From an uncultured delta proteobacterium (GTDB lineage Bacteria > Desulfobacterota > Binatia > Binatales > Binataceae), in NCBI GenBank assembly GCA_963830715.1, contig CAWHNS010000001.1:70192-134191 (forward strand): 64,000 nt of DNA, given 5' to 3'. A program made the translations under genes and the position numbers. This document shows positions 2,164 to 57,725 of this stretch, piece after piece. The stretch's first letter is position 1, and the number at the start of each line of letters is the position of its first letter. Under the pieces are notes generated by a model, which was not told the DNA's origin, made no database searches, and was given only the letters and a program-made list of their open reading frames with translations.

Positions 2164-4089
2164 ATGTGCGGCATTTGCGGCGTAGTAAGCGTCACAGCGG
2201 CGGAGAGGATCGATTCGCTGGTCATCGAGCGCATGCGGGACACGATGCTGCATCGGGGACCCAATGACTGCGGATGCTATGTCGGGCCGGGGGTTGGGCT
2301 TGGTCATCGCCGGCTGTCGATCATCGACTTGCGTCCTGAAGGACGCCAGCCGATGGCGAACGAGGCAGGCAGCCATCGGATCGTTTTCAACGGCGAGATC
2401 TATAATTTTGCCGAGCATAGGCGATGGCTGATTGACCGCGGCCACGTGTTCCGATCGCTCACCGACACCGAAGTGGTGCTGCACTTGTACGAGGAAGTCG
2501 GCGCAGAATGCCTCGAACGGCTGCGCGGAATGTTTGCCTTCGCGATCTGGGATGAGCGCCGCCGCGTGTTGTTTATGGCGCGCGACCGTGTCGGCAAGAA
2601 ACCGCTCTTCTACTTCTGGGACGGGCGCCGGCTAATCTTCGGCTCCGAGCCCAAAGCGATCCTCGCTTTTCCCGGAATCTCCGCAGAGCCCGATCCCGAG
2701 GCCATCAACCTGTACGCGGCGCTCGGTTACGTGCCGAGTCCGCTCAGCGCTTTCAAGGGAATTCGCAAGCTGCCGCCGGCGCACTTTCTTGAATTCCGGG
2801 ACGGTCGAATCGAAGTCAAGCGGTACTGGGAACTCAGCTATCTTCCCAAGCTCCGGATTGGCGCGCGCGAGGCCCGGGAGGAGCTCGTCCAAAGACTGAC
2901 CGAATCGGTGAAGCTCAGGATGGTGAGCGATGTCCCGATCGGCGTGCTGCTGAGCGGTGGCATCGATTCGAGCGCGGTGGTCGCGCTGATGAGCCGGCTG
3001 ACTCCAGGCCGCGTTAAGACTTTTTCGATCGGGTTCAAGGAAAAGGATTACGACGAGACCGGCTATGCCAGACTGGTGGCCCGCAAGTTCGGCACCGAAC
3101 ATCATGAGTTCCAGGTCGAACCCGATGCGCTCGAAGTGATCGATCGGCTCGTATGGCATTACAACGAGCCCTATGGAGATGTGTCTGCGCTTCCCACTTA
3201 TTACTTGTGCAAGCTGGCGCGCGATAGCGTAACCGTGGCGCTGAACGGCGATGGCGGTGACGAAAATTTCGCCGGCTATGTCCGGCATTCGGTCAGCCTG
3301 CTCGCCAGTTATGTCGGCTGGATGCCACGCGTGGCGCGCCATTCATTGGGCCGCGCGCTGGCCGTCGCGTTCCGCATCCTCGGTCCCGAGGGGCGGCTCA
3401 AGCGTCATAGCTCGGTGCTTCCTGAAACCTTCCGGCTCGAACCCGGCGAGGTCTATCCGGCTCTGCTCTCGCAGTTCAACCGGGCGCATCGCCAGGCCCT
3501 CTACAGTTCGGATTTCGCCGCTCACGTGCGGTCGTTCGAGGGCGAGGAGCTGATCGCCAGATTGCAGTACCAGAGTGACGCGGATAACACCGTGGATCGG
3601 ATGCTCGCCGCGGACGTGGCTCTCTACCTCCCCGACGACCTTCTGGTCAAGTTCGACATCGCCGCCATGGCAGTATCGCTGGAGACGCGATCCCCGATGC
3701 TCGACCACAAGTTCATGGAATTCGTTGCGCGCCTTCCAGCCCGGTGGAAGATGAACTCGATCACACGCAAGGTGATCCTCAAGAAGGCGTTCAGAGGCAT
3801 CCTGCCAGATGAAATACTCCATCGGCGAAAGATGGGGTTCGGGGTTCCGATCGACCATTGGTTCAGAGGCGCGTTGAGCGACTTCCTGCGCGATACGCTA
3901 TTGAGCCGTCGTTCACTTGACCGGGGGTACTTCGATCGAAAGTACATCGAGAAGCTGGTCGAGGAGCACACCTGCGGCCGCAAGCAGTGGCAATACCTGC
4001 TATGGAACCTGCTGATGCTCGAACTGTGGCACCGCGTCTTCATCGACTCGGCGGTGCAAGCCGCTCCTCTGGCGGCCAGCGCCATCTGA
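2164..4089 (+). CDS. asnB: asparagine synthase (glutamine-hydrolysing)
   Basis: N-terminal MCGICG (Ntn Cys2), PP-loop LLSGGIDSS, and full-length AsnB-like sequence. Start chosen at ATG 2164 within ORF 1978..4089. Confidence 0.9.
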   Translation: MCGICGVVSVTAAERIDSLVIERMRDTMLHRGPNDCGCYVGPGVGLGHRRLSIIDLRPEGRQPMANEAGSHRIVFNGEIYNFAEHRRWLIDRGHVFRSLTDTEVVLHLYEEVGAECLERLRGMFAFAIWDERRRVLFMARDRVGKKPLFYFWDGRRLIFGSEPKAILAFPGISAEPDPEAINLYAALGYVPSPLSAFKGIRKLPPAHFLEFRDGRIEVKRYWELSYLPKLRIGAREAREELVQRLTESVKLRMVSDVPIGVLLSGGIDSSAVVALMSRLTPGRVKTFSIGFKEKDYDETGYARLVARKFGTEHHEFQVEPDALEVIDRLVWHYNEPYGDVSALPTYYLCKLARDSVTVALNGDGGDENFAGYVRHSVSLLASYVGWMPRVARHSLGRALAVAFRILGPEGRLKRHSSVLPETFRLEPGEVYPALLSQFNRAHRQALYSSDFAAHVRSFEGEELIARLQYQSDADNTVDRMLAADVALYLPDDLLVKFDIAAMAVSLETRSPMLDHKFMEFVARLPARWKMNSITRKVILKKAFRGILPDEILHRRKMGFGVPIDHWFRGALSDFLRDTLLSRRSLDRGYFDRKYIEKLVEEHTCGRKQWQYLLWNLLMLELWHRVFIDSAVQAAPLAASAI

Positions 4090-52260: not shown

Positions 52261-54941
52261 CTAGGGGAACGCGCCCGCCTTTAGAGCCAGCGCCAGCGTT
52301 GTCCAGCCGCCGACGTTCATAGCGGCCGGATCTGCGGGTACGGTGCCGGCCGCGACCAGCGTCTTGTCGCCGGCGGCCGCGCCGTAGTTGACGCCGTTGC
52401 TATACTGCCGCACTGGAATACGCCCGGTCAGGTCTGAGGGAAGAACAAAGCCCTGGTTGGCGGCGGTGAAGAATCCCACGTAGGTGTCGCCGCTGTGCGC
52501 GGTCGTGAACGAGCACAGCGTGGGAGCGGTGCTGCTGCCCGAGTTGCCGCAGAAGCCGTCTTCGGGCGCCGCCGGATCCACTCCCCGATAGACCAGCATC
52601 CCGCCCGCTTCATAGGGCGTGCTGCCGCTGAACGACCATTTGTAGATCGATCCTGAAGCCTCATTGTTGGCGAAGCGGTACCACACTGAGATTACGCCGT
52701 CGCCGGTGCGGACCGCAGAGTTCATCAACTGCCATCCCGAGGGCGGAGTTGCTGTTGCGTATACCCAGTAAGAATAGAACGCCAGCATCAGGTCGCCGTT
52801 CTGAACGTTGGACGGGAGGGTCTGGTTGGTGTTGCTGGCACTCGAAGCGCCGACAAATGCGATCGCCCCGGCGATCGGAGTAGGGCTTGGCGTCGGCGTT
52901 GGAGTAGGAGTCGCGACCGGTGTCGGAGTGGGCGTCGGTGTCGGAATCGGAGTGGGCGTCGGCGTCGGAACCGGAGTTGGAGTCGGCGATGGGGGGGGGG
53001 GGGTTGGCGTTGGAGTTGGGGTTGATGTCGGCGTCGCAGTTGGCGTGGGAGTCAGAGTAGGTGTTGGCGTCGGCGACGGGGTCGGCGTGCTGGTCGGGCT
53101 TGGCGTGGGGGTTGATGTCGGTGCCGGCGTCGGCGTCGTTGTCGGAGTAGCGGTGGGCGTCGGAGTCGGGGTCGGCGTTGGAGTCGCCGATGGGGTCGGA
53201 GTTGGCGTCGGAGTGGGAGTTGGCGTCGGAGTCGGGGTCGGCGTTGGAGTCGCCGATGGGGTCGGCGTGCTTGTCGGGGTCGGCGTAGGAGTGGGAGCAG
53301 GTGTCGGCGTCGCAGTTGGCGTGGGAGTCAGAGTAGGTGTTGGAGTCGCCGATGGGGTCGGAGTTGGCGTCGGAGTGGGAGTTGGCGTCGGCGTTACGGC
53401 TGGCGTCGATGTAGGAGTCGGTGTCGCGGTGGGGCTGGGTGTTGCGGTCGGGGTGCCCGCGGCCTTTAGAGCCAGTGCCAGCGTTGTCCAGCCGCCGACG
53501 TTCATAGCGGCCGGATCTGCGGGTACGGTGCCGGCCGCGACCAGCGTCTTGTCGCCGGCGGCCGCGCCGTAGTTGACGCCGTTGCTATACTGCCGCACTG
53601 GAATACGCCCGGTCAGGTCTGAGGGAAGAACAAAGCCCTGGTTGGCGGCGGTGAAGAATCCCACGTAGGTGTCGCCGCTGTGCGCGGTCGTGAACGAGCA
53701 CAGCGTGGGAGCGGTGCTGCTGCCCGAGTTGCCGCAGAAGCCGTCTTCGGGCGCCGCCGGATCCACTCCCCGATAGACCAGCATCCCGCCCGCTTCATAG
53801 GGCGTGCTGCCGCTGAACGACCATTTGTAGATCGATCCTGAGGCCTCATTGTTGGCGAAGCGGTACCACACTGAGATTACGCCGTCGCCGGTGCGGACCG
53901 CAGAGTTCAGCAACTGCCATCCCGAGGGCGGAGTTGCTGTTGCGTATACCCAGTAAGAATAGAACGCCAGCATCAGGTCGCCGTTCTGAACGTTGGACGG
54001 GAGGGTCTGGTTGGTGTTGCTGGCACTCGAAGCGCCGACAAATGCGATCGCCCCGGCGATCGGAGTAGGGCTTGGCGTCGGCGTTGGAGTAGGAGTCGCG
54101 ACCGGTGTCGGAGTGGGCGTCGGTGTCGGAATCGGAGTGGGCGTCGGCGTCGGAACCGGAGTGGGCGTCGGCGTCGGAACCAGAGTTGGAGTCGGCGTCT
54201 GAGTTGGAGTCGGCGTCTGAGTTGGAGTCGGCGTTGGAGTGCGTGTCGGCGTCGGGGTTGGCGTCCGGGTGGGGGTTGGAGTCGGAGTCCCGGCCGAGGT
54301 TGGAGTCGCCGATGCCGTCGGAGTAGGGGTCGCCGCGTTCGTGTTCAACTCGGCGGTATCGAGTGCGAAGTCGGTGCAGGTTCCGACGCAATTCGTAAGG
54401 CTGAAAATCACACTGGTGATGTTGGCGCCGGTCTGGTCGCGCACGCCGGCATAGAGAGCGTCGCCGTTCGAGTCGCTGGTTGCGGTGAAAGAACCAAGCG
54501 AGCTCGCGCCATTGAAGGCTTGGATCTGGGCCGTGAATTGACCCGGTCCGTCCGCCTGAATCAGGGCCCCGCGCCCGATATGGATTTGCCGAAACTCAGA
54601 GTCAGAGGCCCGTTGCCGCCGTTTGCGGCATCTGACGTCCAGATGAGGCTATCGCCGGCGGTGAACCCCGATCCGCTCCAACTGCACGAAGCCGCCGGGC
54701 ATACCACCGAGATGATGCTGTTGGGGCCGGCCAGCGTGACGGTGGCCGCCAGGCTTGCCGATGAAGTCACGCTCGCGCTGGATCCGAGGACAGTCAGGTT
54801 GGCGCCGAGTTGTGACCAGCTTATGGAATCGTTTGCGGACTGCCCGGCCTGGCTCGTCACAAAGACCAGGGAATCCGCGCTCGCATCACCGGCCGCGAGC
54901 AGGATTGCTACGACCAGAATGTGCAGCTTGTAGCGCTGCAC
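52261..54941 (-). CDS. secreted protein of unknown function: N-terminal unknown domain, then two near-identical ~205-aa unknown domains each preceded by a long (Pro-Thr)n linker; one frame break near the N-domain
   Basis: GTG 54941 gives the signal peptide [22 protein letters not shown]|D. The junction ..SISGAGP|(L)[16 protein letters not shown].. lies near 54559-54566 and joins ORFs 54561..55070 and 52261..54444. I cannot name either globular domain type. Confidence 0.7.
52278..52977. repeat. copy 1 of a 700-bp near-identical direct repeat (offset 1185 bp)
   Basis: Aligns base for base with 53463..54162. I saw only 3 substitutions (52289 c/t, one a/g in tgaAgcctc, one t/g giving Met/Leu in GWQL(M/L)NS). 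Confidence 0.9.
52978..53462 (-). repeat. coding low-complexity tract: (ACN-CCN)n Pro-Thr linker with an internal 66-bp periodicity and a G13 run (52991-53003)
   Basis: Translates [16 protein letters not shown].. The 66-bp unit recurs at 53161 and 53227. Confidence 0.85.
53463..54162. repeat. copy 2 of the 700-bp near-identical direct repeat
   Basis: See copy 1. Confidence 0.9.
54163..54335 (-). repeat. second (N-proximal) Pro-Thr linker-coding tract
   Basis: Translates ..[49 protein letters not shown].. Confidence 0.8.
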
Positions 54942-54976
54942 CCGCAGCGAGCCAGTCGCCGCTCGAACGCGAGGGC

Positions 54977-56166
54977 CTACATGCATACGGGCCCGGCGCC
55001 GCTGGTGAAATGGCCATTGTCGGAATACCAGCCGTTGACCCCGATCGAGGGCGACTGGCGAAAGAACCACGAGAAGAAAGCCAGTTCCTGCAAGTGGTAT
55101 GAATACCCATTAGGCATCGTAACCGCGGGAAGCACCGTGCCGGTCAGCGGATCTCCAACTTCGAGGTTGCCCTGACAGCCACTGACCTGGCCGACATGGC
55201 CCCAGGCGGGCGTTGCATTGCCGCCGAGCGGGTCGTCCATCCATTCCGCCACCTCGTGGCTCATCGCGGCGGTGTCTCTGAAGAGCCGAAAATTCCGGTG
55301 GTATCGAAATCGACGGGCGCGTAGAACTGGTAGGGGTATCCGAACGCGGCGTGATAGCCAATGATGCAGCAGTTTCCGCTCAGCGACGGCGTGCCGTAGG
55401 TCATGACCACATCGTGAAGCACGAAGACGGGGAAGATGGTCGGCCCGACGCCTTGCGAGGAAAGTGCGGGAATGAGCGTGCCTTCCAGGTAGGAGTCGAA
55501 CCAGCCTATGTCGATTACCCCTATGTTGCCGCATCCTCCGTAAGGACTACTACTATTGGTGGAGCCGCTGCCCGACGGCACATTTACAGTCACCGGCGCA
55601 AGAGTAGTAATCGGACTGAGTACCGTATGATAGCTACTTCCGGCGACTGATACGTGGGTCCAGAAATTGGCGCGCTGGAAAGCATCGACGTACTGGGTGG
55701 TGCCCATGCTGGTGCCGCCGAAGGTGAAGCTGGTCGCGGTCAGCAGCGGCGATTGTTGCACCAGGGTAATTGCGCTGGAGGATGTGCAACCATCGGACAC
55801 GGTCGGGTCGAACACGCCCCCATCCGGCATGTTGATCGCCAGCGGAACGACGACCGCGCCGACGTTCGTGGTCCTGGCTCCATGGAAGAACGGGCTGCGG
55901 CCAACCATCGTGCCCGAGTAGGAATTGCCGTCCAGAGGTGAGGTAACGGTGAAATTCCACAGCGGGACGGTGCCGCTGCTCGACGCGGTGCCGAAGCTCT
56001 GTGCCATCGGAGACGTCGAAGAACCGAGATCCTCTCTCAGCGGCGCGAAGGTAAAATATCCGGGCGGCGGCTTCAGCAGGGTGGCTTGCTGGCCGAACCC
56101 CGCGGCCGCGGTGGCGCAAAGGCCGACGATAGCGCCCAAAAACGCCCACCCGGGTTTGCCGCTCAT
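54977..56166 (-). CDS. secreted protein of unknown function (about 395 aa); one frame break in this sequence
   Basis: ATG 56166 lies 6 nt after GAAGGAAG. Signal peptide MSGKPGWAFLGAIVGLCATAAAGFG. The junction ..TTGIFGSS|(E)DTAAMSHEVAEWMDDP.. lies near 55273-55287 and joins ORFs 55261..56193 and 54977..55534. Conserved-looking blocks are CCIIGYHAA, SHEVAEWMDDP and LQELAFFSWF. Confidence 0.6.
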
Positions 56167-56228
56167 CAAAAGCTTCCTTCTATTCGACCACACTGGGAGT
56201 TCCTGGGCGGGGCCAGCCTAATGGCAGG

Positions 56229-56251
56229 AATATATTACAGGCTGATATATT
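56229..56251. promoter_or_regulatory. AT-only perfect palindrome AATATAT-N9-ATATATT in the 145-nt gap upstream of the secreted-protein gene
   Basis: Read directly. It is the only AT-rich patch in this region, and on the minus strand it offers TAATAT-type -10 hexamers. Confidence 0.35.
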
Positions 56252-56338
56252 AGTTTGGGCGCGAGTTGGAAGCAATGCCAGAAATGCGTAAGAGGGCGCT
56301 TTGCGCCGCGCGGCGTCTGGGGAAAAGACCGGGGCCGA

Positions 56339-57725
56339 TCAGTGAGGGCAGACGGGAGCGATCCATGATGGCCGTGAAAGCATTTGCGGATAGCGGAGCG
56401 CGCCCGGCACGTTGATCGCGGCGCCACTCAGGAGGAAGAGCGCGAGCGCGGCACGCGTCGATCGGCCGCCGGCGTTCCATGCGACCGCAACCGCGAGAGC
56501 CATCCAGGGAAGAAACGGCACCCAGTAGCGCGGGCCATAGCAGTAACCGGGTCCAAAGCCTGGCCGCAGCTACGACGGTGGCAAAGAGGACGAGAGGAAT
56601 CACCATGTGACGCGCCAGGCCCGCGCCATTCCGGCTGTCGGGGCGCGAATGCAGCAGCGCAAGGGGCGCAAAGATCACCCACGGTGCGAAAAAAAGCAGG
56701 CCGTGCTCGGGCTCCAGGAAGGTTTCGTAGAGCGAGCTCAGGTTGTGCGCCAGCGCCGTGCCGCTCACGAGGTTGCCGGAAATGATCGGCGTGCGCGCCA
56801 ACCAATAGTTGAACCCGATCAGGCCCGCGGCACAGATGGCCAGCGCGGCGCTCATCATTCCCGCCTGACGCCAGCGGCGGTCCCATAGCGTCTCCAGCAC
56901 GAAGCCCGCGCCGACTACGGCGTAGGGCGGCTTCAAGATTGCTGCGGCTGCGGCGGCGAGGGCCGCCAGCAGGAAGCGCTCTTCCTCCATCGCCCACAGA
57001 GCGAGAATCAAGGTCAGCCCGATCACCGGCTCGGAGTAATACGATCGCGCATACGGCAGCCATGGACTGGCCAGTGCGAGGATTGCCACGCCCACGACGG
57101 AGCCGGCGCGGCTCATGCCGGCGCGACGCGCCGCCACGAAAGCCACGATGCACGTAACCCACGAAATGAGGACCATCGCCACACTTGCCTCGCCCTCCAC
57201 GTCTTCAATCGACGGGCGAAAAGGCGCGATGAGCGCCGCAAGCAGGGCGGGATAGGCCACCGGATGGGCCGACACTTCGTACAGGTCGGGTGAGGGCTTG
57301 AGCAGAGTGGCCTCCGCCGGGCTGATGAGTGCCGGGTCGCCCTTGTGCAGATCCATCCAGGTTGCGTGCGCTCCGGTCCGCCGATTGACGATGATCGTAT
57401 GATGATAAAGGTTAATCCCGCGGCAGAGGACGCCCGCTTCCAGGCCTGAATTGCCGACTCGCTCGTAGTCATCCTGCAACTCAAGATCATGGTCGAACAG
57501 GATGCTGTTCACGACCATGAGGTAGTGCGGCTCGTCGCCCTTCATTGCCATTGCCGGAACAATTCTCAAGTGCCGTCCTGGGACATGCGTGCCGTGAACA
57601 TACATTCCGCACTCCAGCCAGAGGTGGGTCACTCCCCACATCGCGGCCAACAGCAGGAGGAAGAACAGAATCAATCCCGCCCGGCGCAACGATTCGGCTA
57701 CAGCTTCCGTCAACGGCAACTCCAT
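56339..57725 (-). CDS. polytopic membrane protein, GT-C-fold glycosyltransferase-like (family not identified); one frame break near the 3' end
   Basis: About 10 or more hydrophobic segments. The first extracytoplasmic loop carries KGDEPHYLMVVNSILFDHDLELQDDY (an acidic DE..Y motif as in ArnT/PMT-type enzymes). The junction ..VVAAA|(x)FGPGYCYGPRYWVPFLPW.. lies near 56555-56566 and joins ORFs 56250..57725 and 56339..56521. Confidence 0.55.

Follow-up and report, generated by a model that had tools for sequence, protein, structure and literature searches.

Gene layout and the repeat pair

We analyzed a 64,000-nucleotide stretch of DNA (the window; positions below are counted from its first letter) from an uncultured delta proteobacterium of the Binataceae (GenBank assembly GCA_963830715.1, contig CAWHNS010000001.1, positions 70,192 to 134,191). 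The window contains a gene for a secreted protein in which a 700-nt tract is present in two nearly identical copies. The gene lies on the minus strand. Homologue alignment, the list of open reading frames (ORFs) and translation place it at 52261–54986, with an ATG at 54986, a stop codon at 52261–52263, about 908 codons and one frameshift. From its start it encodes a signal peptide, an N-terminal domain of ~180 amino acids, a first linker (L1), repeat copy A, a second linker (L2), repeat copy B, a five-residue tail and the stop. The signal peptide appears to be of the Sec type and was assigned by eye, without a predictor.

Both copies lie within a single open frame of 727 codons (minus strand, 52261–54444). 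The N-terminal copy A (53463–54162, minus strand) consists of 110 nt of Pro-Thr linker and a domain of ~200 amino acids (53461–54060). The C-terminal copy B occupies 52278–52977 on the same strand, with its domain at 52276–52875, and six codons including the stop remain to the end of the ORF. The short tail follows ALKA and includes GAFP ahead of the stop. L1 is 183 nt of Pro-Thr-coding DNA 5' of copy A (54163–54345, minus strand) and is unlike L2, the 485-nt Pro-Thr spacer that separates the two copies (52978–53462, minus strand).

A direct-repeat scan and a base-by-base comparison aligned the two copies without gaps at an offset of 1185 nt, with 697 of 700 nt identical (99.6% identity for DNA and 99.5% for protein). 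The mismatches fall at 52291, 52657 and 52725 in copy B, corresponding to 53476, 53842 and 53910 in copy A. On the coding (minus) strand they read, in the same order, GCG/GCA and GCT/GCC, both synonymous changes between Ala codons, and ATG/CTG, which places Leu in the N-terminal copy and Met in the C-terminal copy. This exact alignment confirms an earlier sequence-only reading of the locus, which had described a gapless pair with three substitutions, one of them Leu/Met. By the Nei-Gojobori method, synonymous divergence (dS) is ~0.011 (2 changes over 185 sites) and non-synonymous divergence (dN) is ~0.002 (1 change over 514 sites). The near-identity thus extends to synonymous sites, in agreement with the very recent copying event that the same reading had proposed.

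The borders of the repeat are sharp: outside the 700-nt tract, identity drops to ~25–40% within a few bases on both sides. The pair therefore has the features expected of gene conversion, namely a near-identical tract that includes synonymous sites, sharp borders and unrelated flanks. No third copy of the tract was found genome-wide, and the next-best DNA matches are paralogues at ~68% identity. A mobile element or a larger set of copies was considered and rejected, since the genome has just two copies of the tract.

The repeat had been described as a 1185-bp head-to-tail duplication, a description that does not survive comparison of the linkers. Only 700 nt of the 1185-nt period are repeated, comprising ~110 nt of Pro-Thr linker and the ~200-amino-acid domain. 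L1 and L2 agree exactly over at most 16 nt in a row, compared with 12–17 nt between unrelated Pro-Thr linkers of other genes and up to 53 nt for the recent repeats inside L2; their likeness is one of low complexity only. A further claim, that the linkers differ while the domains agree, is correct for the remainder of the linker DNA (54163–54345 versus 52978–53462) and incorrect for the ~110 nt (37 codons) of Pro-Thr linker that lie inside the identical tract.

L2 has an internal structure of its own. Because stretches of 53, 44 and 42 nt recur exactly within it (at offsets of 162, 66 and 276, respectively), L2 itself appears to be expanding by slippage or unequal exchange. A 66-nt period is also present, and the internal units are ~75% alike. 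A run of 13 C on the coding strand (C13; 52991–53003, minus strand; G13 on the forward strand), which reads PPPP, lies ~14–22 nt upstream of the start of the copy B tract, the range reflecting a ragged edge. This run is the longest homopolymer in the 4.19-Mb genome, in which the next longest is 10. A one-base slip in the run, in either direction, would remove the second domain, and its length is hard to call by Nanopore sequencing.

Origin of the repeat pair

The arrangement of the repeated tract (R) and the spacer constrains how the pair could have formed. No single-step tandem duplication gives R-L2-R, because neither flank carries the rest of the 1185-nt unit. The DNA that follows copy B is the C-terminal tail and 3' flank, not L2. 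We therefore rejected a one-step tandem duplication of the whole 1185-nt unit, as L2 recurs neither upstream of copy A nor downstream of copy B. One conversion between pre-existing copies, by comparison, explains the layout in one step.

We accordingly favor, at about an even chance, a single recent non-reciprocal copy (intragenic gene conversion) between two pre-existing domain copies rather than a duplication. Under this account, two tandem domain copies separated by L2 would already have been present. The 700-nt tract, consisting of the ~200-amino-acid domain and the 37 linker codons that precede it, would have been copied from one copy onto the other by homologous recombination, leaving the spacer L2 and the upstream linker L1 unaltered. 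The two synonymous changes and the Leu/Met change would have been acquired after the conversion. The resulting direct repeats, 485 nt apart, could then recombine by a RecA-type route, which would leave one domain after deletion or three after expansion. The pair is thus probably unstable in copy number, and the earlier suggestion that it forms a substrate for unequal recombination stands.

Relatives of the gene provide context for this account. The domain occurs in one to four tandem copies in secreted proteins of metagenome-assembled genomes (MAGs) that resemble Binataceae and in metagenome proteins. Among named relatives, its carriers are Microflora Danica long-read MAGs labeled 'uncultured delta proteobacterium' and one 'Candidatus Binataceae bacterium'. 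The genome studied here has two paralogous genes, one with three tandem copies (contig C9) and one with two (contig C5). Eight of the 11 entries that share the N-terminal domain, some of which are the same gene from two sources, have two or three core copies, and one-copy proteins also exist. That a multi-copy architecture is usual among relatives with this N-terminal domain argues for conversion between copies that were already there.

The same range of copy numbers bears on a second account, in which a recent true duplication of the 700-nt segment took place in a single-domain gene and L2 was created or acquired at the junction, or grew later. L2 could in that case derive from rapid Pro-Thr repeat expansion or from multi-step unequal exchange between Pro-Thr linkers. 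The presence of one, two or three core copies behind the same N-terminal domain indicates that copy number changes in the family, and the exact internal repeats and 66-nt period of L2 are consistent with recent internal expansion. In two relatives (P0017 and L032), moreover, the whole linker and domain unit is clearly duplicated, with alignments that continue across the linkers. A one-step event nonetheless predicts L2, whole or in part, outside the pair, either ahead of copy A or past copy B, and neither is seen. A 485-nt spacer with units ~75% alike, set against domains that are 99.6% identical, would also mean either that spacer and domains ran on very different clocks or that a further round of recombination took place. 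Duplication with a complex junction thus comes second after conversion, and we consider it possible but rather unlikely.

The divergence of copies within other genes places the pair in a wider setting. Across 33 multi-copy entries of the domain family, some of them redundant, the present gene is the only one with copies at least 95% identical. The highest within-gene protein identity is 53–92% in the other multi-copy entries, compared with 99.5% in the present gene, and within-gene DNA identity at 26 relatives' loci is 65–86%. In a tree of 98 domain copies, those from one gene frequently group together as sisters, and do so at a range of depths; position-specific orthology is seen among other copies. 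Judged from these tree depths and within-gene identities, the family evolves through episodes of intragenic copying, after which the copies diverge, and not through continuous, efficient homogenization. The present pair is the youngest copying event sampled.

These comparisons do not bear out the ongoing homogenization that had been suggested for this locus, as no other pair among the multi-copy entries reaches 95% protein identity. Continuing concerted evolution would involve recurrent conversion, possibly with selection for a length-variable, 'periscope'-like secreted protein. Such a process is consistent with the observation that within-gene copies are mutually closest in many family members, and high DNA identity of tandem domains is a hallmark of length-variable surface proteins (PMC8201768). 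With a single entry above the 95% level and the others well below it in both protein and DNA, however, the process would be episodic at best. The gene also has just two copies with a long flexible linker between them, forms no rod and has a copy number known from one assembly. We regard continuing concerted evolution as improbable. Fainter still is the prospect that the gene encodes a variable-length or phase-variable secreted binding protein, in which recurrent conversion keeps the pair identical, the number of domains switches between one, two and three, and slippage in the C13 run toggles the second domain. If true, a phage-tail-like domain without a Pfam family would here form a 'periscope'-like device in a bacterium that is not host-associated.

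Several observations weigh against recent conversion between pre-existing copies. First, no orthologous locus was found in four same-genus genomes; the flanks are not syntenic, and a DUF445 neighbor alone is conserved (in G001 and G003). Second, a homologue search returned nothing closer than ~63% protein identity, so the state before the event, whether two diverged copies or a single copy, is not visible. Third, the copy number and the three differences rest on the consensus of one MAG, because the search for a second assembly of the gene came up empty: the 727-amino-acid product had no match in an exact look-up, and metagenome contigs scanned for exact 46-mers yielded 0 matches. Fourth, the existence of one-copy proteins with the same N-terminal domain makes a single-copy ancestor possible. 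In addition, two frameshifts within ~1 kb lower trust in the local consensus. Finally, conversion between copies as diverged as those of the relatives (65–86% DNA identity) would be inefficient.

Frameshifts, upstream genes and the assembly

The frameshift in the repeat gene is a one-base shift at a G4 run of the coding strand (54567–54570, minus strand) in the N-terminal domain, where homologues need one more base. When the N-terminal domains of three homologues (P0002, P0006 and P0007) are aligned here, the matching frame changes at ~54567–54576, a site that the homologues read through without a break. At the switch the coding strand reads GCGGGGCCCTGA, and the homologues have GAGA[LFY]IQADG. 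An ORF in the other frame (54561–55070, minus strand) contributes the start, the Sec-type signal peptide and the first two thirds of the N-terminal domain. The shift may be either a Nanopore sequencing indel or a genuine pseudogenizing slip. The true start of the gene is probably the ATG at 54986. Because this ATG overlaps the stop codon of the upstream co-directional gene, the two genes look like an operon.

The upstream gene (54977–56193, minus strand) encodes a secreted protein of unknown function and is itself split in two frames near 55273–55288. Its counterpart in another genome (G006) is a 412-amino-acid open frame that matches residues 25–395 of the joined query. The two frameshifts in ~1 kb may represent either local consensus indels or a decaying locus. 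The DUF445 orthologue in the same-genus genome G003 (L026/L027, C5:176592–177588) is also split in two frames, and frameshifts thus seem common in MAGs of this genus.

A third co-directional gene (56250–57725, minus strand) encodes a 491-amino-acid protein with weak matches to cell-surface glycopolymer and glycosyltransferase families, all below cut-off (NF046093, 2.8e-9; NF047440, 1.9e-4; GT87, E 1.7). The locus thus comprises three co-directional genes, the first of them with weak matches of a glycosyltransferase-like kind. As a speculation, the 491-amino-acid protein could add sugars to the Pro-Thr linkers in the secreted proteins encoded downstream.

The frameshifts also bear on whether the pair is an artefact of assembly or polishing, the true gene having one copy or two diverged copies. 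The source is a MAG of 24 contigs with 85% completeness, two adjacent genes in it are frameshifted, and the C13 run, difficult for Nanopore, adjoins the repeat border. Two contig ends (C1:1–8797 and C18:24635–33423) overlap with 96% identity along 8.8 kb, a hint of strain mixture in the bin. L2 is nevertheless in frame with the domain on both sides, and the frame is open over 2.2 kb. A one-copy gene cannot give this layout without real R-L2 and L2-R junction reads, and reads in data sets of this kind are typically longer than the 1.9-kb repeat region. Errors in a consensus, moreover, yield differences rather than identity, and the 4-kb rpoB gene of the same genome is intact. Local repeats of at least 300 nt and at least 95% identity are rare, with three in 4.2 Mb. 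We therefore consider an artefact unlikely.

Systematic duplication by the assembler was rejected on the basis of the same low number of local repeats. Another local tandem repeat, of 410 nt at 97.6% identity and an offset of 468, is found in or beside a Pro-Thr-linker gene (C21:2928–3337 versus 3396–3805). The 8.8-kb overlap between contigs C1 and C18 could represent strain heterogeneity or an unresolved repeat.

MAGs of the Microflora Danica survey were produced from Nanopore reads by Flye assembly and one round of Medaka polishing (PMC12313526). The source MAG (4.19 Mb) was probably made in the same way. If so, its reads, several kilobases long, would reach across the 1.9-kb repeat region, and some homopolymer indels would be expected to survive polishing.

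Domain fold and comparison with known systems

We identified no Pfam or NCBIfam match above the curated cut-off for the core domain or the N-terminal domain. A sequence search of the PDB likewise returned nothing significant for either; matches to fn2/MMP entries (E≥0.02) were discarded as faint and look like noise from Cys spacing. The PHROGs database gave one weak match only (phrog_36177, unknown function, E 7e-4).

The AlphaFold2 model of the core domain is all-beta, with a predicted local distance difference test (pLDDT) score of 92.8 and a predicted template modeling (pTM) score of 0.90. A fold search of this model against solved structures in the PDB gave no significant match (best E 0.006, template modeling [TM] score ~0.2). 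Against the predicted viral proteins of BFVD, the model gave 75 matches at E≤0.001, the top ones with TM scores of 0.7–0.82 over ~200 columns. Among them are minor tail proteins from phages of Mycobacterium and Gordonia, together with many uncharacterized phage proteins, at 15–24% sequence identity to the core domain. On predicted models, the core domain thus passes the TM threshold of 0.5, applied to the full domain, for a beta-sandwich fold shared with domains of phage minor tail proteins. The model of the N-terminal domain (pLDDT 55) was too poor for a fold search.

The domain family is large. When a profile of 25 domain copies was compared with 1.84 billion proteins, it matched 5592 cluster representatives at E≤0.001; of these, 747 reached E≤1e-10 and 38 reached E≤1e-30. 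Four of 10 scanned distant members have a catalytic domain or a beta-helix, namely Metallophos, GH39 (weak, below cut-off) together with fn3, a SASA esterase or a right-handed beta-helix. In all 10, the stretch that matches the core domain lies outside Pfam coverage. The fold and the domain partners in distant relatives suggest that the core domain may be a beta-sandwich module that binds cell-surface or polysaccharide ligands. It is a candidate new domain family.

The repeat is real but ordinary, a clean example of a known process that leaves current understanding unchanged. Near-identical tandem domains flag genes that are able to change length fast and mark the sites at which least trust can be placed in assemblies, gene callers and domain counts. 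In this uncultured lineage, the pair also puts a very recent date on a recombination event, and it shows that the domain family evolves by repeated intragenic copying. As a side result, the analysis describes a widespread all-beta domain of ~200 amino acids that lacks a Pfam family or solved structure and has a predicted fold like that of domains in phage minor tail proteins. These by-products (the frameshifted gene, the Pfam-less phage-tail-like domain family and the co-directional gene trio) may outweigh the repeat in use.

The closest named class is that of periscope proteins, in which length variation stems from tandem domains that are highly identical at the DNA level; length-variable surface proteins with highly identical tandem domains include Rib, SasG/Aap, the SHIRT domains of Sgo_0707 and Esp (PMC8201768). 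The present protein resembles this class in being secreted, with an N-terminal domain followed by near-identical tandem folded domains that form a substrate for intragenic recombination and repeat-number change. Its folded domains are tandem and highly identical in both DNA and protein, and two copies are the smallest possible array. In contrast to a contiguous rod, a flexible Pro-Thr linker of ~160–200 amino acids joins the two domains. A signal peptide and a conserved N-terminal domain are seen, whereas no cell-wall or membrane anchor motif is visible at the C-terminus, where the ORF ends five residues after the second domain. Repeat number varies between strains in periscope proteins, while the present gene is known from one assembly. 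Its domain is also unrelated to known stalk domains and has no Pfam entry, and its host is an uncultured soil bacterium rather than a pathogen. We do not file the gene as a periscope protein.

Modular secreted glycan-active proteins with Pro-Thr (PT) boxes, such as the cellulases of Cellulomonas and other actinobacteria, provide a second comparison. In these proteins, as in the present one, long (Pro-Thr)n linkers tie together modules with a beta-sandwich fold, and distant members of the present domain family are fused to GH39, SASA esterase, Metallophos or beta-helix domains. The present protein differs in that it has no catalytic domain. The likeness to phage minor tail proteins is one of predicted fold (TM 0.7–0.82), with low sequence identity (15–24%) and no match to a solved structure.

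The closest parallel to the proposed origin of the pair is intragenic or interparalogue gene conversion, which in bacteria drives concerted evolution of tuf genes, rRNA operons and repeat-containing surface antigens. The likeness includes the near-identical tract, sharp borders, unrelated flanks and similarity at synonymous sites. The present case differs in that the donor-recipient relation and the prior state are not visible, and it perhaps represents a single event rather than a sustained process. Direct repeats of 700 nt that lie 485 nt apart are expected to undergo RecA-dependent deletion or expansion at appreciable rates. The two-copy state is therefore either young or selected.

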